A stretch of 54,882 nt of DNA, the filler included, from Jimgerdemannia flammicorona (Eukaryota), in the NCBI GenBank assembly GCA_003990765.1. It is 2 parts of 2 records of this genome, joined end to end, with 100 filler letters (N's around TTAATTAATTAA, not from the genome) between each part and the next. Parts side by side here need not be neighbours in the genome. Positions count along the whole stretch, not along the records: positions 27,498 to 54,882 come from RBNJ01000633.1; 1 more part is not named here. The stretch is one strand, 5' to 3'. Below the pieces are notes generated by a model. That model searched no databases. It was not told the DNA's origin and worked only from the letters and a program-made list of their open reading frames with translations. Shown here one piece after another: positions 27,662 through 48,240 of the stretch. How positions within the stretch are numbered: the stretch's first letter is position 1; each line of letters starts with the position of its first letter. The position numbers and the translations under genes are program-made.

Positions 27662-29160
27662 TTATGCTTGACGCGTAAAATACGCCCACCTAACGTCACC
27701 CGACCAGTCTCCTTGGAGTCCATTAATTGAGAACATCTGTGTGACTCTCCTTCCTTTCTCGCCTATGGCAATTGGCATACTTAGAAAAGAACGAATTCCT
27801 TGATATCCTCTTTTTGAAAGAATCCTGAAAATGCTGGAAAGACTCTCCTCCAGGGACTGCATCATACCTCTCTTGATAAGTTCGATTTCCACAAAGCCCC
27901 CTTGCCACAACTTCGACGGGCGCTTGTTCTCCTCCACATTCTTAGGTCGTTTGTCGCCGTTAGGACCAGAAAATTCACAACATATCCACAGGAATACATA
28001 CTGGAATGACTCGAGGTCGTCTCGAAAAGTCGCGCTCGTGGTGTCCGCTTCCTAGGACATTGATTGATATGAATGGCGCCGTTCAATTGCGGTAGACCGC
28101 GCCGAATTTTTTTGTTAATATCGTCTTGCACTCTATCAAGTTTATCTTCGTAATGGTAGCGCTCGGCTATATGCAAGTGTGTTCTCGTCTTGCTCAATCG
28201 CAACTGGTTTGTTGCATACTCCAGCATTGTCCTTCTGATTCGCGTTCTTCTTGTCATCAAGTGTCCTTGATGAGGAAACGCTTGTCACTTTCACCATCCT
28301 TGTACGCTTCCCAACAAACTGTACCACGGCCGCCGATCACGGGGCGATAGAATATCACTCTGACGAGAACAAAAAAGTTTCCTTCGAGCAATCTTCGCGC
28401 TGAATGTCGATACTACCATATAATGGAGCCTTTGCAATCCTGATAGTTGGATCGTATCCGAGATTCTTGATTTCCATCATGCAGAACCCGACGATGACAC
28501 GGACAAATGTCGTAATATCTGTGGGGATGTGGATTGAAACCGAACTGATTCCCCGGATCGATCGAATTGCCACACACGCATCCTGGTATCGCACAATGTG
28601 AAACCAAGCACGAAACGGCGATTTGGCTGAGTGCCGAACACCTCGCGCGCATAACTAGCAAGTTGTATATCTGTGCCGTTTCCATCACTGTCGGCATCAC
28701 GTTTACCTTCCCCACCGGCTATTACGTTGCGCCAATGGATGGAAGAGTTGCTTGTCTTGGGAATCTTGTTGGCGCGGACAAGTGTGTAATACATCTTGCG
28801 CTTCGCATAACTGCCCCTAAGCGGCTTTTTCGAGTGGTCAAAAAACTCCAGCGGCTTCACGTGAATGACAGGTTCTCTCTGTGTTATCTCGATGATTTTG
28901 TTCGCCAGATCCGTGAACAATGGGTAGTTTACGACTTCTTGGTCTTTGTGCGGAATGAATTTAGTGGTCTTAATCACCTCAGTGATTGCCTTAAATCTCT
29001 TCGACCCAGGAAACAGGGTCTCAATAAATTTCTCGACGTCCCGATGCAGGTTGCCCTCGAGTTCTTCCTTTAAAGCCGAGTCAACGGATCTGTGTGCGTG
29101 CGTCGAGCTGATCACTGTACCAAATGTCCGCCGTATAGGGATTGATTTCACTAGCAATTG
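27662..29160 (-). pseudogene. Fungal-type protein kinase (FunK1) pseudogene
   Basis: 'QLASYAREVFGTQPNRRFVLGFTLC...VWQFDRSG', 'LGYDPTI', 'GRGTVCW', 'LIKDT**', 'DDLESFQYVFLWIC'. Frameshift near 28552, TGA TGA at 28254-28259, and no HRD/DLD catalytic segment. Confidence 0.85.
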
Positions 29161-30399
29161 ATAGATGTCAATAGTAAAGAAGAATTACACAGGCGACTGA
29201 GTTAATAACTTACATTCAGGAACACCGGCATTGACGCCGCTCGCGTGTCGTGGTGTACTAGAACGCTCCAGCCGTTTGGTAACCAGAATAGAGTGCATTT
29301 TGATGAAATTACTTATGTAAGATTCAGTAACCGATGGCAAACAATGATATAGCGGATAGAGCATTACCCCATTCGCATCCCAATCCCAGATTATTTCTAT
29401 GCCGCATTCCCTCATCAGGATTTCCCACTTCCAGTCTGTTGGAGGGAACGAACGTTGTCAAATGTCAGTAAAATTCAATTTTACTCACAACAGTAGTAGT
29501 AGCCGTGACTAGACGTTCAGGTTGCTTTAGTAGGTTGACCGAAGGTTCTCTAGAGGAGAGAAGTTGACGAGAATATATGTAAATTGGGAATGTACCGAGT
29601 TGTAATCAGAAAATTTAAATACGCGTCCCTTTCCTACTCATTTGCACACTCTAAACAAAGGGAAAGAGACACTATACCTGGAATGGTTGAAACGGCGGAG
29701 AGTTACATAGCAATGGTGAGCGAATAGAAGGAGCAAATAGGAAATGAAATAGATGATAAAGGAGTCAGGATGAATGAACATTTAAGAAAGACTCGGGCAA
29801 ATGCGTGTATTTACAAGGATCCACCACTCCATAAGGGAGCCACGGAGGGCCCCATCGTATTACCGACCGTTCAACGAGTATACAAATGTATTCCCATCAC
29901 TTACCAGGAACAACGGCAAACAGGTACATGTCGGAGAAGGATTTAGAACTGAATAATTTCCTTTAAATGGAACTTCCACACTGAATTCGAGGACGGAAGC
30001 AAGATCATCTTCCGAGTCTAATTCCAGTGCCTGATCAATATTTTTCGTCCGGCGGCCTTAAAAGTAAGTTCGTGGGGTCGTAGCCATTGAAGACCATTGA
30101 CGATTCAGCTTTGATTGCTTTCTTGAAGTCACGAGTTTGAACCAAGCCTTTGGTAGTTTCATGGTGGTGTTGATCGAGTTAAATTTACTGGGAAAGCAGG
30201 GAAATAGCAGTTGACCCTTGAAATGATAGAGGTTTGGAGGAGTGAAGCGCAAAGATGTCGGTTAAGATTCTGACAAATAACTCCAGCACGAAAAATGGTT
30301 CAGTCTCCTGAATAAGCAAATGACACGTGATTCGAATCGATTACGCCACGCGATTGATGACTCTAATTTTGTCAATTAATCGCGTGGCGTAATTAATGG

Positions 30400-31621: not shown

Positions 31622-34341
31622 ATGATCAATTTAAACCATTGCCTACTGCTCCTTGCTCTTATTCTCTCCAACAGTCTCGCCCACGCCGTCACCCTCCAGA
31701 CCTATACACCGGTCTCCGAGTGGCTGCCCATCGACCTGGCCTCGTACACCAGTGGCAACGCGAATTTTATGCATGATCTCTATAGGCTATTTTGGAAACT
31801 TAATTTGGATGCCGAAGTTCCCAGCATTGATATCGCTTTGGATGTGAAGACAGGCGGGTGGTATGTTTTTTATTTTATTTTATTTTATTTTATTGGAGGG
31901 AGGGAGGGAGGAAAGGAGGGGATATGGGAGAATGTCGGCACACTGATTTACAACACATAATTATCTATCAAAACTCATCTCCACTACCTATAGGCTTGGC
32001 TTCGGCCTTGCCGAACCTAACAGCGGCGGCATGCGTGGTTCCGATATCGTGACCCTGACAGTCCATCCCCACAACGCTACCCACTCCCTCACCAGTCTCA
32101 CCGACCGCCACGCCCTGCACCACGCCTTTCCAAGCGAGGATCTCTGCAACCAATACACGCTCCACGCCGGATGGCGGTCCCCACCGGGGGACGACCCGCG
32201 CGTGGTGGTCGCGTTTTCCAGGCCCATCGATACAAACGACAACCAGGATCGTCCATTTAAGGCTGGGCCTGTCAATATTGTCATGGCATATGGCGAGCAG
32301 AAGGATGTTGCGTATCATGGTGGAAATAGACATGCGTTTAGTGTTACGTTTTGGGAGGAGGAGAAGGAAGAGGAGGTATGGGAATCGATGATGGTCGAGG
32401 GCTCGCAGGAAGATCTTAGTGAGGCCAAATCAACAAAGGAGGAACGTATTTTCGATTACGAGTATGCCAACACCCCAACGCCCATTCTCGCACGCGAGAC
32501 CGTATACATGTGTACCGGTATGTCCTTGCTATCTTCCTGTGACTATTGTCCTCGATCACTCTGCTAATACATATACACTCCCTCACCCTACTGCTCCCCA
32601 CAGGCTTCGAGTTCAATCCACCCCACCCGACGAATGCTTCGCTCCTCGCCACAGGCCACATAGTTGAGATCCGTCCCATGATAGACCCCGCCACCATGCC
32701 CTACGTCCACCACTACATCGTGGGTGCGTGCAAAGGTAACACGGAAAAGTATAGAAGTATGGTCGGCAAGCCGACGGAGTGCATGACGAACGGATTCGAT
32801 GTTATGGACGTTTGTCCAATTATGGTTTACGGTATGGTATTACTTTTCTTTCATGGTGTTCGTCAATTGGACAACCTTCATGTTCCTTACCTTTCCGTTC
32901 TCAATTCCACAGGCTGGGCCGTCGGCTCAGGCCCGCTCGTCTTCCCACCCGTGGCCGGCCTCCCCTTCGGCGACCCCTCGGATCCTTTCGATACACGCCA
33001 CCTCCTCCTTCAAGTCCACTACGACAATCAGATGCCCGAACGGACCCCCGCTGGTCTTCACGACACTTCGGGCCTCGTCATCAGATACACGTTCGACAAG
33101 CGCCAGCATGACACGGCCCTCATTCATCTGGGCGATGGGATGGTTATGGGCGACCCCATGCCGTTCGGAACGGAGGGAAAAAGGAGAGAACTTGAGGTGG
33201 GTTGGGAGAGTGGTTTGGAAGTAGTTGTGTAAAGTTGTTCGTACGATTCTCATTATACTTCTCCTGTCACAGTACACCTGTCCTGGCGAATGCACTGCCC
33301 TCTGGCCATGGGACATCACCGCTTTCGCTGTAAGCACCCCTCCTTACTTCTTGTCTTTGAACCTTCCCACACAAATAACCGTCCTCGCCACTCGTCCTTC
33401 TATCCTCCCCTCCCTCCACATGCACAAATACGGCCGCCAGATGTGGTCGTCCATCACTTCGCTAGCGACCGACCCTGATGTCGTCACCACCACCACCGAC
33501 CTTGACCGCACCGACTTTTATGAATTTGAGTTCCAGCACGTGTCACATATTCATAAGGTCATCAAGAGGGGAGATAGGCTGAACGTGCATTGCGTGTGAG
33601 TAATAGCAGTCCCTTTTCGGGAAATGGTTATATGCTTTGTGTGAGCTCGGGAGGGGCCCTGATTGATCGTTCTGTCTGTGTGGTTTGCGGTGGTCATTGA
33701 TTATGTAGGTACGATACGTCACAGAACTTGTTTCCGCACATGCGTCCGAATGATACAAAGGTCTCTTTTGGCCTTGCCTCAGAAGATGAGATGTGTATTG
33801 ATTACAGTGCGTATTTTTTTTTTTTTCGAAAAGAGTCGATGTGTAACTTACCAACATGTGCACTGTTCGCGTTCTCGTGCCTGCCAACCAATCAATGCAA
33901 CCTTCCATTCCCACCCTCTACAGTATACTACTACCCCCGCTTCCCTAATCAACCTGACAACAGCGTCTGTGGTATGTCCTTCTATCTACCCGCCATTCCA
34001 TGATCTTCCATGATCCTGTCGATCCCCCTTCCATCTAAAATGCCCGTTCCCTTCACACAGGCCTTGGCTTCGACAATGGCACCGCCTGCGGCCCCTTCTC
34101 TGGCAATTTTCCCACCCGCTTCCCGTTGATCTCCAATCCGGTCCTGCCCAATAACACTCGCTACGCTGACCACAATAGCACCCGCGCCATCCGGTTCGGC
34201 ACCGCGCCAGACACGTGCTCGGCCCCGGTCATGGAAGTTGAGCGTGTCCCCGCTAGGGTCCTTATCGTGCAGAAGATTAGAAACAGGCTACAGGAGTGGT
34301 GGAGGGTGGTAGAGAGGTTGAGCAGGGGTTGGATTGCTTGA
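31622..34341 (+). CDS. Secreted DOMON + copper type II ascorbate-dependent monooxygenase (DBH/MOXD1-like), multi-exon
   Basis: Signal peptide. DOMON 'LFWKL...GG|WLGFGLAEPNSGGMRGSDIV'. CuH ligands 'VHHYIV' and 'LQVHYDN', 'GWAVG...FPPVAGLPFG', 'HDTSG'. CuM ligands 'LHMHKYGR' and 'EDEMC'. Also 'GDRLNVHCVYDT' and 'YYYPR'. Confidence 0.88.
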
Positions 34342-35643: not shown

Positions 35644-37436
35644 ATGTCAAAGAAATCCGGGTTCTGGGGAGGGTGGTGGGCCAAGAAGGAAGTCGAAGAA
35701 GCGAAACAGGGTAGGTCTTGGAGGAGTCTGCTTGTCGGTGTTCTTTGCCGCTTGGGCGAGTAGATGAGCCGGAATCTGTGACCCTCCCCGTGCCTCTCTG
35801 ACGCTGAAACCACCGCGCATCTCTCGCATCAGTCGACGTACCCATTAAGATCCTGGGAAACCGGTCCTCAGGCAAGACAACACTCCTGTACAAGATCTAT
35901 TTCAAGCATCTTGCAAAGACGGCGAGTAGCTCCCCTTCTCTTTTCGTGTCTGCGTGCATATTGGGGTATGTGTGTGTTGCCTGGTCGAGTGCCGTATCTC
36001 TGACCTCTTGGAATGGGTACCGCTCATCAGCCTGACGAGGCGTTCGGCGTCGTCCCCACGGAGTCGTTGAACGTTGAATCAATACCGTTCCGCGATGCGA
36101 TGTATCAGATATGGGAGTTTCCTGGTGAGTTTCTATTGCTTTTTGAGTCCGTGGGATTGGTATCTTTATGGAGAGGGTCTGTTGGTTTCGTTGAGGAAAC
36201 CTTGTCTTATTCCTATGTCTATTAATCGACATTCATTTATCCAACACAGAAATGGGATTGGCCATCGACTACATGAAAGACACTAAAGTTCTCATCTATG
36301 TTCTTGACTCTGTCGAGCAGTCAAAACCTGAGATCTTTGAAAAGGGGAAAAAAGATATGCGATGGCTGCTCGAAACGTACGCAGAGGACCTCCGATCCGC
36401 TATCATCATCACGATAGCGAACAAGCAAGACCTCGTCGGCGCCAACGGTGCGAAAGACGTGCAGGAGCTCGGCGAGATGTGGATGGAAGATGATGAGCTT
36501 CGACGAGCGCTAGAGGGACACCAGTGGCGTATCTTTCCATGCACGGCGTCCAAGGGCGAGGGGATCGACGCGGTACTCGATTACGTGTACCAGAAGACGG
36601 TCGCTATGCCCGCCACGAGCGAGGCCGGGATGGATTCCGCGGGCTCGTCCGCAGGCGGGTCAGCGAAATCGTCCATCGAGCACAGCATGTCGCAGTCGTC
36701 GCAGAACGGGCGCAAATCGCAAGCAATCGCGAAAGAGGCCGGGTCTGCAGTCCTCGTGTCGTCTTCGACAACGGACGGGACGAGCCCGAACCAGGTCGTG
36801 TTCCGGCGGCCGACGGGTAAGAGTGAGCAGATCCCCAAGTTCCCCGTCACGCCGTGGGAGGATGTGCCGAACCCGTACCACTTGTCGGACGACGACTTCC
36901 TTGCCTGGTTCGACGAGGGCCGCACCTTTCTCTTCTTCGACCATCACTCCCTCATTCGTGTCGCATACCTCTACATGCGCCGTTCAGAGACTTCCACTGA
37001 GCGTCGCTCCGACGCCACACGCCGCCTACTCTACTGCCTGCGCACCATCCTGAGGTCCATCGAGTTGCATGAAGAAGACGTGCAGAACGAATCAAACACC
37101 ACGGGGGCGTCGAGGAATGCCGAATTCGCGCACGATTCTATCGTTTACTCGGAGACCCATGCCTTGTTCTGGCTGCAGATGGTGTCGTACTCGTTGATAA
37201 AACACCCAGTGTTGGACGGCGAGGGGAGGAGTTTCGATAGGTTTTTAATGAGGAGCCCGGAGCTGTGGGACGGAGAGCTATGGCGGATCTATTATACGCC
37301 CAAGATTTTCCACTCGGAGAAGGCGCAGAACGAGTTCATGCCGCCGGATAAGAAGCAGCTGCCGAATGCATTCAAGCCCGCGAGCGTCGTGTTGAAGGGG
37401 TCCGGGTTAAATATCGATTATAAGGTCGTGGGGTGA
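35644..37436 (+). CDS. Atypical Arf-like (pseudo)GTPase fused to one uncharacterised C-terminal helical domain (exons 35644-35710, 35833-35921, 36031-36124, 36250-37436)
   Basis: P-loop 'ILGNRSSGKTTLL', switch I 'VPTESLNVE', G3 replaced by 'WEFPE', G4 'ANKQD', G5 'CTASKGEGI'. C-terminal domain 'LSDDDFL...DHHSLIRVAY...YSETHALFW...PELWDGELWRIYY...FMPPDKKQLP'. The second intron needs a GC donor. Confidence 0.8.
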
Positions 37437-38254
37437 AGGACTTGGGCTAGGATGGTGAGGTCAGGAGACGTTATGTATTATACATAGATGGAAGCGAGGA
37501 TTTGTATGTAGCAGAGGTTTTCACCTGTGGATGCCTACGCCATCGTGTTCTCATGATAGACACCATTTGTTCCCTTGTTTATTTAATATATTCCTTATTT
37601 GATCAAACAAACTATTACTTGATCGACTGCAATAAATCATGTCGTTCCCATTGTCTACGACATTTGTGACATTTGGCGGAAACTTGCAAAGAGGGGTCGG
37701 CTTTCCAACTACTTTACGGATACCCCTCAATCAAAGCCCTCAAAGCCTGGCTGGACTGAGGCAACATTCAAGACGGTCCGTAGGGGTGGGCATAAAATTT
37801 CCAAGCCGCCCCAAGCCACGGTGATGATCAAAACGAGGGAAGGTTCAGGCCTCTTTGTTATTGGGCCATGGTGAGTTTGTTCTTTTTTTTTGGGGGGGGG
37901 GGGACGTATATTTATATTTATATTGATTTTCCGAATTACGACTCATTCCCGACGTTTTCAACAGCAATCCGCCGCTACACCAGTCGAATTCACTGTCTAA
38001 TGTTTTCGAGGGCTTCCACAATCTGTATGAGCCGTGGCGCAGGTGCCACTGAGTGGCGGTCTAGTGAGTCGAGCATAATGCCAAGATTTTCTATTGGGGT
38101 GACAACGTGTTCGGCGTAGGGTTTGCCAGGTAATTAACTCGTTCCACAGTCTAATCTAACCAATCATCGGCGAGACGATTGCTGCGCTCCGTCCTACCTT
38201 CCCCCTTAAAACCCCCCCCCCATCGCAGGCATCAAGCAACTCCTCAAACGAAAC

Positions 38255-40356
38255 ATGAATTCGTGGCTGCAATCCATCAACCCATGGAAAAAGGCTCAAG
38301 TCCGAGGCCTCATACGTAAGTTACCCGATATTGCTGGCTGTTCCCACCATCCGCGACATCAATGCTACTTATCCAACAACGCACTAACATGTATATCCGC
38401 TGCCTCCCGAATCTCACGCAGTTGGCAATAGTGCGGCGGGAAAGACCACGTTCTTGTACAGGCTCGTACTTGTAGGTTCTTGTGTTTGCTCTCCTCGACG
38501 TAAGGAGTTTGTCTGGCTATTTTTTGCTCGACCTTGACTTCACCGCTTTCCGCCACAACAAGGGTGATCAGATGATAACGACCATACCGACCATCGGATT
38601 TAACGTCGAGGCTTACCAGCACAAAGACGTCAATTTTACGCTGTGGGATGTTGGCGGTAAGCCATATTCTTTTCAAATGACCGTTCAAATCTTCTGCATA
38701 ACGTAATCACTCGCCACAGCCTAACATCCCACCAACCACGTCCTCTTCCCAGGCTGCGACAAGATTCGCCCCCTCTGGCGACACTACTTTAACGACATGC
38801 AAACCCTCCTCTTCATCATCGACTGCAACGATCAAGACTTAAGCAACCGAGCGCAAGCCTTGGAAGACGTGCGGTGGGCGCTGACGGACGACACGCTGCG
38901 GGAGCAGAACCCGTTCGTGGTGATCGCGTGCAACAAGCAGGATGCACCGGGGGCGACCACCCCCGACGAGATCCGCACATGGTTGATGGCCCAGCCAAAC
39001 ATCGACTACATACTCAGACCGGGAAGGTGGGCCCTCACCGGATGCTCCGCAAATACGGGGCATGGCATAAGCGACGTGGTCGAGCTCGCGTATCAGGGTG
39101 TCGTGACGAAAAGAAAGGCACGGGGAAACGCATCGACGTCTTCATCAGCATCTGGGCCGTCCTCATCTTCCTCCGGTACCGAGGCGAGCTCCTCGACCAC
39201 ACCACCCCCACTTGACTTCCCCTCCCACCCCGAAATTCCGTCCCGTACAGCCCTCGAAGACCGTATCCGCGAGACAACCGACACGCCCGTCGATCATGAC
39301 CTCTTCCTCGCCGCGATTTGCTCTGGAACATTAACCCCCTTCGACCACCGCGCCCACCTCCGTCTCGCCTACATACATCTCGTTCGCTCTGCCGCGCGCA
39401 ACGAGCCGCAAGCCCTAGCCGTGAACCAGATCACGTCCCACCTGAAGGAGTTCTTCCGCAACGCCGACCCAACGCGGATCCGACTCACGTACCACGAAAC
39501 CATGACACGGTTCTGGAGCTACATTGTCGCATATGAGATTATGCGCTACGCCGTTGCGAAGGGGGGTACCGCCGTTCCGACCGAGGGCGAGTTCGAGGAC
39601 ATGCTTAGATACGCCCCGCACCTCATGTGGGGCGGCCTGTGGAAGGTGTACTACACGAAAGGTCGCCTTTTGGAGGGCGAGCCTGGCCAAGAAGCAAAGC
39701 GCGCGTTTGTTTTTCCAGATGTGAAGATCCTGCCATCATACACGATTGTCCCCGCGGGCTCTGTCGCGCCGGGTCAGGCCGAGGACGTGACGGACGAAGA
39801 CGGCGACGACGAGGGCGACGCCTGGGAGCTGATCCGTCCGACGGAATCCGCTGTCGACGACGCAACGCCCTCTCCCTACGACCTGTCTGACGACGTGCTT
39901 TTGGACTGGGTAGAGGCTGGACGGATGCTCGCTTTTCTGGACGACCGAACGTTCATCCGGTTGGTGTTTTTGCATCTACGCCGTGCGATGATGGCGGGGC
40001 AGCGCCGTGGGGACGCCGTGACACGCATGATGGTGACGCTGGAGTCGACGCTGATGCGGATCCGGGGGCGTGGGGCGATTGGAGGGATGTATGGCGGGGG
40101 GGATGTGGCGATCAAGTTCTCGGAGACGAAAGTGTATTTTTGGACCCAGATAGTGTGGCAGGGGCTGGTGGCGCAGGCGGGGAAGGGGAGGGAGGCGAGC
40201 GGGATAGGATTTAACAAGTTTAGGGATTTATGTCCTGAGTGCAGGGATGTTGGGTTTTGGAAGGTGTTTTATTCGGAGAAGGTGTGGTTATCGGTCGAGG
40301 CGAATATGGGGTTCGTGTTGCCGGATAGGAAACCGTTGCCGAATGTGTTGATGTGA
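38255..40356 (+). CDS. Atypical Arf-family GTPase fused to two copies of an uncharacterised helical domain (exons 38255-38315, 38422-38471, 38563-38656, 38753-40356)
   Basis: '[15 protein letters not shown]', '[11 protein letters not shown]', '[17 protein letters not shown]', 'NKQD', 'CSANTGHGI'. Then repeat 1 '[10 protein letters not shown]...YHETMTRFW...LWKVYY...[10 protein letters not shown]' and repeat 2 '[10 protein letters not shown]...FSETKVYFW...FWKVFYS...[10 protein letters not shown]'. Confidence 0.88.
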
Positions 40357-40427: not shown

Positions 40428-40479
<52 letters not shown>

Positions 40480-40550
40480 TTTTTTTTTTTTTTTTTTTTT
40501 TTCTTATTTTGAAACTTTTTGGTTTTTTTTTTTTTTTTTTTTTTTTTTTT
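40428..40550. repeat. Long interrupted poly(T) tract
   Basis: About 120 nt, nearly all T, starting about 70 bp after the Arf-fusion stop codon. Confidence 0.9.
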
Positions 40551-41241
40551 GGTACCATTCATGTGGAAACCTGCTTGCATGTTGATCCTCTGTACAACAG
40601 TGGAACATCGTTGGCTTTTATTTATTCATTTATTTATTCCAAGACATGGGTTTCGTTACATGATTGTATCCCTTCCACTCTCTCGTTCTTTTTAGCATAA
40701 ATCTTTTTGCAGTGAACCGAAAGAAGGGCGTGTGGATTATAAACAGCAACAAATTACATTGGGTAGTGTATTTCCCAAGCGGAGCTAGTAGTTCTGATCG
40801 GTTTGTATACCCTCTTGGTAATTACTTGCTCTCCGCCCAAATTATTGGCTACAATGTGAGCAGTGGCTGCAGGCGGAGCGTGTCAAATAATAATAATAAT
40901 AAAAAAACAGGTGGCGTACATGTGGCACTGCCAGCCTATAAGTGAGGAGAATTTTCAGCGATCTAATCGTATTAGGAAGGAGTGTGTGAGGCGCAAGAAC
41001 ACTGGCTAAACGTAGGTTTCACTCGGAATTCTATTTTGGCTAGTTGGGTAAATCAAAGGTGGCGAGGTGTCGACATAACCATATTTGTCAATGATGCGCT
41101 ACGGATGGGCACGGCTTATCCGGCCGCTTGTCCATCTTCGTCCGTAACAAAACCTTATATAAACTTCCCATTGCTACTGTGCTCCGCTGTCATCCCCACA
41201 ACGTCGATCTTCTTCATTCACGTCATCCAGCCTCACACAAC

Positions 41242-42117
41242 ATGCTCACTCTCCGCTTCTTCGCTTCTGCCACTCTCTTCCTCGTCGCTATCGCCAGCCC
41301 CGTCGACCACGTCGCCCAGACCTTCGCGATCACGGTCGAGAACTTAAGCTATAAGCAAATATTTACGCCCGTCCTGACCGTGATCCACGAGTCCTCTGTT
41401 ACTATCTTCAAAACCGGCACCCCAGCTTCCCTGGAATTGCAGTATGTCGCCGAGGACGGAAATGCAACCATGTTCGTGCAACTATTTGAATCCGGCCTCA
41501 GTGGGATTTGCGGGTGGTCAGTCGGGTCTGAATTGACGTTCCCGGGGAAGACGTACAATGGCAACGTGACTATTACCAAGCCATGTCAGGATCCCCATAT
41601 CTCGATCGTCAGTATGCTCGGTATCAGCAACGACGCATTCACTGGTATTAGTAGCGTTCCCCTCGATGTTCAACACAAGATTTCGGAGGTATGTCGTCGA
41701 CTTTAGTTCTTGAATAAATTCATGAGGCATATACCGGTTAGAAAACTGGCAGGCAATACTAATTTTCTTTCCCTCTGATATACAATCAATAGCAAGTTAC
41801 TGCCTACGATGCCGGCACTGAAGAGAACAACGAAGACTGTGTATACGTTGGTGCTTGTGCGGGTTCTCACAACCTCCGCACCCCTGGACTTGGCGAAGGG
41901 TAATGCATCCACATCGAAATGTTTACTGTACAAATATAAGCGATTACTGGTGTTATGTAATCCCGCCAGTTTCCTAGATTCACTCTTGCTCTTCGTCCAT
42001 CTTAGCTTCGTCCACGTCCACCGCGGTATTCATGGTCTCAATGTCACCAAGCCTGGTCTCTCAGTCGAATACGACTGGCGGTTTCCTGTAGCGTACATCA
42101 CCGTTTCTAGCACCTAA
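41242..42117 (+). CDS. Secreted spondin_N-domain protein of the stand-alone bacterial type (3 exons: 41242-41688, 41793-about 41899, about 42006-42117)
   Basis: Signal peptide, 'ITVENLSYKQIFTP', 'ASLELQYVAEDG', 'SMLGISNDAFTG', 'AYDAGTEENNE', 'GEG|FVHVHRGI', 'DWRFPVAYITV'. Confidence 0.82.
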
Positions 42118-47071: not shown

Positions 47072-48240
47072 TCAAAAATTCTCAATATCCGGACACAGCT
47101 TAAACGCCCTCCTGTACAAGGCGACGGCCTCGGTCTGGCGCCCCTCGCTCTCGAGCTGCTCCGCGCGCTGCTTGAGCTGGATAGCCTCTGACTCCTTGGC
47201 GGAATTTTCGATGGGCTCAATACGCGAGAACATGATTTCGGAGCGGAGGATGTATTTTTTGCCCGAGAGGAGGACGTCTCCTTCGTGCAAGAGGCCGTGG
47301 TTGAAGACCAGGGCCATTCCAGCTTCGGGACGGACGCGCGAGGCAATTGTGCCGTCCTGGATGTAAAGAGGATGGATGGTGGTGAGTAGCAAGAAATTTC
47401 CGGAAAACGGGTTGGCTGATTTTGCGAACCGCACTATGTGGAAATAAATTAGTACCCTCGCCCGGATCTTGCCCGTGACTTCGTCTGTGTATAAGTCTTG
47501 GTCATCCACAAAGTTGGTTGTGCCTCCTTCGAAATCGCCATTCAGGTAAAACATGAAAGTCTTCATCGATCGGCGGTTCAGATCTGTGACGAGGACGCCG
47601 TCGCGGTGAGGGCCTGCGCGATCCAAAAAGTAAAATAACACCAATGTGTCAGTAGATGTTATAAAGAGAGAAAGATTTAAATAAAAGGGTAGGGAATAAA
47701 AAAAAGAGAGATGAAAGATTTCTACTCACCAAAATGACCTCCGGTCTCATATCTAACCAACCTCCACACCTCATTCAACCCGTCAGCCCTCCACCTCCCA
47801 TTCATCCTCCAGCTCTTCCCGACCATACCATCATCTTCATCCTTAACTTCCAACACCCCAGATATCTGCTCATCATATTTGCCCAATACGTCCCTAATCC
47901 TCTCCCACACGACGTTAGCCAGACTCAGGCTGTTAATAATGCCACGGTCGCTGTTGACGTAGCGCTGCGTACGACCATCGTTAGTCGGCACGAGCAGCGG
48001 CTCGCCCGAGGGCAAGATACCCGTGTCAGCAAGTTGGATGAAGCCGGCACATTCGGCGGGCGTGAGGATGTTGTGCAGGACGTAGGCCTTTGGTTCGATG
48101 GTAGACGTCGAGGAGAGCACGCTTGCCGGAAGGGTGAGGGGCTCGACGGTGATAGGGAGGCGAGTGGGATCGGACACCGGGAGGAGGAAGGATGAGAGGT
48201 CAATGGAAGGGAATTCGGTGGGGTTGGAGTTGGTTGTCAT
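47072..48240 (-). CDS. Prolyl 4-hydroxylase-like 2OG-Fe(II) dioxygenase with C-terminal TPR/MIT-like helical hairpin (3 exons)
   Basis: 'VLHNILTPAEC', 'GLNEVWRLVRYETGGHF|GPHRDG' (HxD), 'TFMFYLN.DFEGGTTNF', 'GMALVFNH.LLHEG' (distal His), 'KYILRSEIMF'. Tail 'EAVALYRRAFKLCPDIE'. Confidence 0.88.

Follow-up and report, generated by a model that had tools for sequence, protein, structure and literature searches.

The closest described relatives of the genes considered here are the Arl17 proteins, in which an Arf1-derived and often very divergent G domain is followed by tail copies of another domain (Vargová et al. 2021, Genome Biol Evol; PMC8358228). According to the accessible text of that paper, the tail domain is novel, spans ∼100 residues and occurs in one to three copies that differ from each other; it has no detectable homology to known domains and is also found as a stand-alone protein in bacteria. 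[quoted passage not shown] Here we analyse two neighbouring genes, gene 1 and gene 2, at positions 35644 to 40356 of a stretch of 54,882 nucleotides from the genome of Jimgerdemannia flammicorona (GenBank assembly GCA_003990765.1), which we call the window; this part of it comes from record RBNJ01000633.1. An earlier note on this DNA knew of no described function for their architecture. The architecture is already published under the name Arl17 in PMC8358228, a gene 1 orthologue (P0180) is listed there as PblArl17, and both genes are additional members of a known, uncharacterised group. The note's statement that the fusion lacks a described function stands as regards function, but not as regards the fusion itself, which has been named and catalogued. 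We put at roughly four in five the probability that both genes are Arl17 members, gene 2 of an ancestral-looking and gene 1 of a derived but conserved form, acting by the mechanism proposed below.

Two Arl17 genes side by side

Reading the region directly and testing splice combinations gave two gene models of four exons each, with open frames on the plus strand and 818 bp between them. These models reproduce exactly the coordinates of the two same-strand neighbours with a shared architecture and long intact frames that had been recognised earlier. Their features are as follows.

35644..37436, plus strand: gene 1, 478 amino acids; exons 35644-35710, 35833-35921, 36031-36124 and 36250-37436
35711-35832 (GT-AG, phase 1), 35922-36030 (GC-AG, phase 0) and 36125-36249 (GT-AG, phase 1), plus strand: gene 1 introns
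36112..36251, plus strand: gene 1 degenerate G3/switch II, W-E-F-P-E for W-D-V-G-G, split by intron 3 (G-domain alignment)
36585..36878, plus strand: gene 1 Ser-rich linker, poorly conserved (orthologue alignment)
36879..37385, plus strand: gene 1 single Arl17 C-terminal domain, of the His-less 'copy 2' type with H/L/S at the triad (hmmsearch envelope, residues 294-462)
37386..37433, plus strand: gene 1 C-terminal tail, K-G-S-G-L-x-I-D-Y-x-V, conserved across the gene 1 family, with no counterpart in gene 2
38255..40356, plus strand: gene 2, 602 amino acids; exons 38255-38315, 38422-38471, 38563-38656 and 38753-40356
38316-38421, 38472-38562 and 38657-38752, plus strand: gene 2 introns, all GT-AG, phases 1, 0 and 1
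38755..38757, plus strand: gene 2 codon for Cys70, at the position of the Arf1 catalytic Gln (G-domain comparison)
39262..39747, plus strand: gene 2 C-terminal domain copy 1, with an intact His triad and then Glu (His codons 39346-39348, 39355-39357 and 39493-39495)
39880..40350, plus strand: gene 2 C-terminal domain copy 2, His-less with D/F/S at the triad (profile, alignment and tree)

Both proteins share one layout, an Arf-family G domain followed by a Ser-rich linker and an all-helical domain of ∼150 amino acids, which a domain profile found once in gene 1 and twice in gene 2. Pfam Arf (PF00025) matched the last exons of genes 1 and 2 with E values of 9.5e-13 and 5e-16, with no other match above threshold, and an NCBIfam scan of both genes returned no relevant match. 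The two C-terminal copies described earlier for gene 2 are both present, the triad being intact in copy 1 and replaced by D/F/S in copy 2; they are 27% identical to each other (E 1e-12). As had also been seen before, the tail domain of gene 1 aligns with the second of these copies (32% identity, E 3e-26). The paralogues have thus diverged asymmetrically, as judged by the alignments and the domain tree, gene 1 having neither DxxG nor a His-bearing copy.

Intron phases of 1, 0 and 1 are common to the two genes. The matching positions claimed for all three introns are exact for introns 2 and 3, which fall at the same aligned sites, leave an exon 3 of 94 nucleotides in each gene and, in the case of intron 3, split a codon four residues past the G3 Trp. 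For intron 1 the match is only approximate: the phase is the same, but by manual count on the sequences the intron precedes the P-loop Gly by eight residues in gene 1 and by one in gene 2. The donor of gene 1 intron 2 is GCGAGT (a GC-AG intron), and its removal was confirmed by spliced contigs from two runs.

Both genes thus combine an ARF-family GTPase domain and the tail domain with similarity to listed Arl17 proteins. The same tail domain occurs in chytrid, green-algal, amoebozoan and other Arf fusions, and chytrid Arf fusions are the best named matches of gene 2, which we regard as the ancestral-looking, two-copy, chytrid-like form. Among the available supplementary data of PMC8358228, the table lists a single Arl17 for Phycomyces blakesleeanus, PblArl17 (XP_018290331.1), whose printed sequence is that of P0180 and is 44% identical to gene 1 over 100% of its last exon. 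SpnArl17 of Spizellomyces punctatus (XP_016605738.1), from the same supplement, carries DVGGC within a switch II that it shares with gene 2. In the portion of that work available, Phycomyces and Spizellomyces are each listed with one Arl17, whereas here two subtypes stand side by side.

A public J. flammicorona protein, BC936DRAFT_137477 (P0008, 519 amino acids), corresponds to gene 2 from residue 84 onwards at 517 of 519 residues. Since it begins at Met84 of the 602-residue model, the P-loop, switch I and G3, which are encoded by three short exons further upstream, are missing from it. The remaining 2 of its 519 residues differ from our model, so that the window represents a different strain, allele or assembly.

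G domains of the two genes

The G domain of gene 2 has Arf-like G1, switch I, G4 and G5 motifs, including WDVGG and NKQD, and an N-terminal helix. Its switch II matches what we take to be the Arf1 motif, DVGGQDKIRPLW, with a single change, Cys in place of the catalytic Gln. The near-canonical G domain earlier ascribed to gene 2 is therefore borne out by its Arf motifs, but not at the Gln of DVGGQ, a motif that is found in neither gene: gene 2 reads DVGGC and gene 1 EFPE. In Arf1, replacement of this residue in Q71L gives the classic GTP-locked mutant. Compared with canonical Arf1 and Arf6, gene 2 shares the P-loop, switch I, WDVGG, NKQD and the N-terminal helix, and Pfam Arf is recognised in both genes. 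Both differ from Arf1 and Arf6, however, in carrying 280-400 extra residues and in lacking Gly2; gene 2 additionally has Cys for the catalytic Gln, and gene 1 has no DxxG. The N-termini read M-N-S-W in gene 2 and M-S-K-K in gene 1, so that neither offers the Gly2 needed for N-myristoylation and the N-terminal helix of gene 2 would carry no myristate.

Gene 1 retains a P-loop, NKxD and an SA motif, and its switch II is shortened. The wrecked G3 and the sole His-less copy attributed to it earlier are both evident, WEFPE standing for WDVGG and H/L/S at the triad. From what is generally understood of G domains, the loss of DxxG together with the short switch II would preclude γ-phosphate sensing and the usual GTP hydrolysis. 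Judging from the motifs that are kept, gene 1 probably still binds nucleotide.

The same pattern extends to its orthologues. DxxG is absent from gene 1 and from all 8 orthologues that have a G domain, and the Gly-Gly-Cys stretch is missing in 9 of the 9 gene 1 family G domains compared, which read WE[FY]xE/D or, in 2 cases, WD[FL]xE. G1 and G5 are kept throughout, while G4 is NKxD in 7 of the 9 and NK[IV][ED] in the others. PseudoGTPases include a class that keeps nucleotide binding without a switch or hydrolysis. Gene 1 and its 8 orthologues resemble this class in keeping G1, mostly G4, and G5 while G3 is lost, and a loss of G motifs that is conserved among orthologues would mark gene 1 as a candidate pseudoGTPase. 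It differs from the class in that the gene 1 type makes up a whole orthologue group, within a family in which even the 'active' members are without the catalytic Gln.

Gene 1 is conserved and transcribed

A search with the last exon of gene 1 returned 16 proteins, one of them 74% identical. Full-length relatives with 44-48% identity come from Umbelopsis, Apophysomyces, Radiomyces and Phycomyces, and further relatives from Blakeslea (36%) and Choanephora (42% over half the length). Degenerate G3, His-less domain and C-terminal tail are shared by 13 orthologues, from Umbelopsis and five genera of Mucorales, and the family alignment of 14 sequences has 69 invariant columns. Characteristic of the family are W-[ED]-x-x-[ED] in G3, a short switch II, an intact P-loop and a mostly intact NKxD, and in the C-terminal tail the invariant residues G383, S384, G385, L386, I388, D389 and Y390 (P0001 numbering). 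Gene 1 is a derived form found across Mucoromycotina, the PblArl17 type. Metagenome contigs scanned with the last exon of gene 1 gave 122 pattern matches, and a scan with the family alignment gave 109; no relative was confirmed in either set.

Four public runs were compared with the locus, among them X1, X2 and the metatranscriptome X4. A contig of 1752 nucleotides from X1 has all three gene 1 introns spliced out, including the GC-AG intron, and a contig of 1573 nucleotides from X2, which derives from a 95-99% similar variant, has the identical three joints. For gene 2, a contig from X4 has intron 2 spliced. Contig depth was 57-76 for gene 1 and 1-5 for gene 2, a measure that cannot rank the two genes.

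The X2 variant differs from gene 1 by 13 synonymous and 8 non-synonymous changes among 21 listed gene 1 differences; these counts cover the listed positions only, the difference table having 11 further entries. Six of the 8 listed non-synonymous changes fall in codons 182-234, within the linker, and in the tail-domain region (codons 294-478) 8 listed synonymous differences stand against 1 non-synonymous. Gene 1 is not a decaying duplicate: its conservation is stable, and it is both spliced and transcribed. The earlier note had named lack of expression or neutral evolution of gene 1 as outcomes that would tell against it; the spliced contigs and conserved orthologues speak for neither.

A Cys and a His triad recur across the family

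To survey the tail domain more widely, 1.84 billion cluster representatives were searched by phmmer with copy 1 of gene 2, which gave 275 proteins at E<=0.001, false positives included. In most matches the domain lies at approximately residues 220-380, behind an Arf domain, and among 29 proteins scanned Arf was the only true fusion partner. The false positives (P0047, P0051, P0069, P0092, P0104, P0114 and P0167) are bacterial proteins with SWM_repeat or SEA domains, which reach phmmer E values down to 5e-17 through many weak stretches and are passed over by the domain profile.

The profile was then run over 192 proteins, and 60 multi-copy proteins among them were scored at all three His positions. 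The triad was confined to the first copy in 57 of these multi-copy Arl17 proteins and absent altogether in 3; in none of the 60 did a later copy carry it. With an intact and a degenerate copy joined in 57 of 60 proteins, the contrast belongs to single Arl17 proteins and not to this gene pair. A second regularity concerns switch II. Cys occupies the column of the Arf1 catalytic Gln in 50 of 64 Arl17 G domains, which makes the one departure of gene 2 from Arf1 a hallmark of the family. Fourteen rows lack the Cys; in 13 of them the triad is also absent from the first copy (9 belong to the gene 1 family), and the fourteenth is gapped at G3. On the best tree this co-loss of Cys and triad amounts to 4 losses, all in the same direction.

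Searches of the literature on Arl17 from 2021 onwards yielded only PMC8358228, PMC13714605 and unrelated papers on the human ARL17 gene. Neither 'glutamine' nor 'catalytic' appears as a word in the main text of PMC8358228, of which supplementary figures 8-10 may show the Cys. Nor did the parts of that paper available mention the Cys-for-Gln hallmark, the His triad or the restriction of the triad to the first copy, which the same figures may likewise display.

Structure and bacterial relatives of the tail domain

AlphaFold2 predicted an all-helical fold for copy 1 of gene 2 from a 20-row alignment, with a predicted local distance difference test score (pLDDT) of 90.9 and a predicted template modelling score (pTM) of 0.86. 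A model of both copies contained two confident domains with a matching helix pattern. Residues invariant in the tail domain are H, H, H-E-T, W, Y and P-D…P, and the clustering of the invariant His3/Glu at the starts of two helices is suggestive of a site for a metal or cofactor in copy 1. The tail-domain model had no Foldseek match in the PDB at E<=0.001, and its best VIA-align Z score against 48,161 chains was 5.3, within the chance range for helical models. Likewise, a profile search of PDB sequences produced nothing credible, Pfam and NCBIfam hold no family for the domain, and a protein atlas returned only unnamed bacterial clusters (scores 0.87-0.88). Known helical folds that bind metal through a His triad, such as those of the DinB/YfiT kind, are a lead for this domain; the structure searches showed no match above chance.

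Bacterial stand-alone homologues (P0003-P0007 and L001-L080) are proteins of 133-151 amino acids in which H, H, Y-H-E-T, W, Y and P-D…P are invariant. They are 30-37% identical to copy 1 of gene 2 over most of the domain and have the same His triad. With the pattern DHRxHLRxAY … YHETxTxxW … PD..P they are homologous to copy 1, and differ from the fungal fusions in consisting of a single domain without a GTPase. Such genes exist at no fewer than 552 bacterial loci, 552 of the first 600 pattern matches having been confirmed in a collection with one genome per prokaryotic species, and these span Pseudomonadota, Gemmatimonadota, Acidobacteriota, Planctomycetota, Verrucomicrobiota, Chloroflexota and others.

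Gene neighbourhoods were examined for the best 80 loci, and no generally conserved neighbour or operon partner was found in these 80. The commonest neighbour cluster, ABC ATPases at 8 of the 80 loci, is probably paralogue noise. At 7 of the 80 (L008, L010, L012, L014, L015, L023 and one more) a cytochrome oxidase assembly block adjoins on the opposite strand, 1-5.6 kb upstream, comprising heme O synthase (UbiA family, ctaB), heme A synthase (COX15/CtaA), SCO1/SenC and SURF1. We regard this block as a weak lead towards heme or copper, the seven loci being proteobacterial and related to each other. A gene for a MarR-family regulator stands beside the stand-alone domain at 4 loci, directly upstream on the same strand in L055, L061 and L074, and also in L060. 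These loci are mostly from Chloroflexota, L060 being from a metagenome-assembled genome of Bryobacterales.

Proposed mechanism and relation between the genes

Going by general knowledge of G domains, gene 2 would bind GTP and make an Arf-like switch. Lacking the catalytic Gln, it would hydrolyse GTP slowly or by another route, and could thus serve as a slow, or GTPase-activating protein (GAP)-insensitive, membrane-associating GTP switch with its own effector module. That module would probably be the His3/Glu site of copy 1, holding a metal or cofactor; the later copies and the domain of gene 1 may be structural or binding versions of it. Gene 1 might act as a constitutive, nucleotide-loaded scaffold version of the module, holding nucleotide without switching in the manner of a pseudoGTPase. 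Neither protein should be myristoylated, and an aromatic or basic N-terminal helix could bind membranes in each case.

Several points weigh against this account. That gene 1 binds nucleotide, that gene 2 hydrolyses GTP slowly and that the His triad holds a metal are predictions in each case. The two-copy model has a pTM of only 0.52, with a disordered linker and no confident packing of copy 1 against copy 2. The co-loss of Cys and His triad is not significant, its 4 pairs on the best tree falling to 1 on well-supported branches, and in five rows the triad is altered but the Cys retained. On the side of expression, one low-depth X1 contig reads through gene 2 intron 1 unspliced. The records of X1 and X2 only guess at RNA; the evidence is the spliced contigs themselves, and we took both runs as RNA because such contigs arise only from RNA. 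Finally, in the free domain tree the second copies of gene 2 and of the chytrid proteins group together to the exclusion of the gene 1 family, with a support of 89.

A bolder version, which we hold to be a long shot, goes further: the switch II Cys and the His3/Glu of the first tail domain might form one unit, either a shared metal site or a redox or cofactor relay, and the gene 1 lineage might have discarded Cys, DxxG and the His copy together to become a constitutive scaffold. If so, a metal or redox state, rather than a GAP, would read or set the Arl17 switch, and the bacterial stand-alone relatives would represent a new family of small metalloproteins or enzymes.

The earlier note had read the locus as an active enzyme with a pseudo-enzyme partner or decoy. 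Gene 2 would be a GTPase-gated enzyme and gene 1 its dedicated partner, the two binding each other and remaining adjacent for co-regulation. Several observations agree with such an arrangement: the genes are neighbours on the same strand, 818 bp apart; their losses are complementary, gene 1 lacking the DxxG and His triad that gene 2 has; both are transcribed; and one domain subtype is common to gene 1 and to copy 2 of gene 2. We nevertheless consider it improbable. In the available supplementary table Phycomyces blakesleeanus has a single Arl17 entry, which is of the gene 1 type, and the lineages of all named gene 1 orthologues have no gene-2-type protein among the named matches, which argues that gene 1 does not depend on gene 2. 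Moreover, gene 2 carries a His-less copy of its own in cis, as do the 57 of 60 multi-copy proteins that combine both kinds. A complex prediction for copy 1 of gene 2 with the tail domain of gene 1, run without alignments or controls, scored 0.01 against a mark of 0.34 and is no evidence either way. The simplest account of the adjacency of the genes is that an old tandem duplication left it behind; it is not proof of joint work.

To a specialist on Arl17 nothing at this locus would be surprising, and it does not represent a new kind of system. Its value lies in the family, a LECA-inferred ARF paralogue that is missing from all model organisms. The locus offers a natural comparison, with an ancestral type and a switch-dead type side by side and both transcribed. 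The Cys-for-Gln exchange, the first-copy triad, the bacterial homologues and a confident model without a clear PDB relative are concrete handles on Arl17 function.

Origin of the pair

A different history would separate the two genes more deeply. They could be ancient paralogues with unrelated roles that split before chytrids and Mucoromycota diverged, their adjacency being coincidental or due to a later rearrangement. The basal placement of the gene 1 family in the free domain tree (support 89) fits this view, as do the intron 1 positions, which are 7 codons apart, and the G-domain tree, which does not join genes 1 and 2. The G-domain tree is, however, poorly resolved, with 8 of 58 branches starred. 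Within the domain tree the gene 1 domain and the second copies of gene 2 and of chytrid proteins make up a clade of 17 rows at a Shimodaira–Hasegawa-like approximate likelihood ratio test (SH-aLRT) value of 99. Grouping the gene 1 family with the two rows of Endogonales-type copy 2 was not rejected by the approximately unbiased (AU) test (p-AU 0.386), and the long stem branch of the gene 1 family (0.87) can draw it to a basal place within the clade. Introns 2 and 3 coincide exactly in position and phase, exon 3 is of equal length in the two genes, and chance placement of two members of a rare family 818 bp apart is unlikely. We therefore think it unlikely that the neighbours are so anciently separate, and prefer the old tandem duplication.

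That gene 1 is instead a transcribed pseudogene, a duplicate in decay whose wrecked G3 reflects relaxed selection, is barely credible, because, although DxxG and two of the three His are lost and 8 of the 21 listed differences between close variants are non-synonymous, the 478-codon frame is intact with its three introns correctly spliced, orthologues in at least six genera share the same 'degenerate' motifs at 44-48% identity with the 69 invariant columns, and the non-synonymous changes cluster in the linker, leaving the tail-domain region at 8 synonymous to 1.

Surroundings of the genes

Other frames in the window near the pair have no evident link to the Arl17 genes.

28480-29184, minus strand: fungal protein kinase fragment
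31947-33232, plus strand: DOMON with copper type II ascorbate-dependent monooxygenase
41095-41703, plus strand: Spondin_N
47075-47725, minus strand: 2OG-Fe(II) oxygenase with TPR

A T/G homopolymer run occupies positions 37880-37905 of the spacer between genes 1 and 2, and very long poly-T tracts lie just downstream of gene 2 (40437-40552). Reads or contigs appear to be cut at both places.

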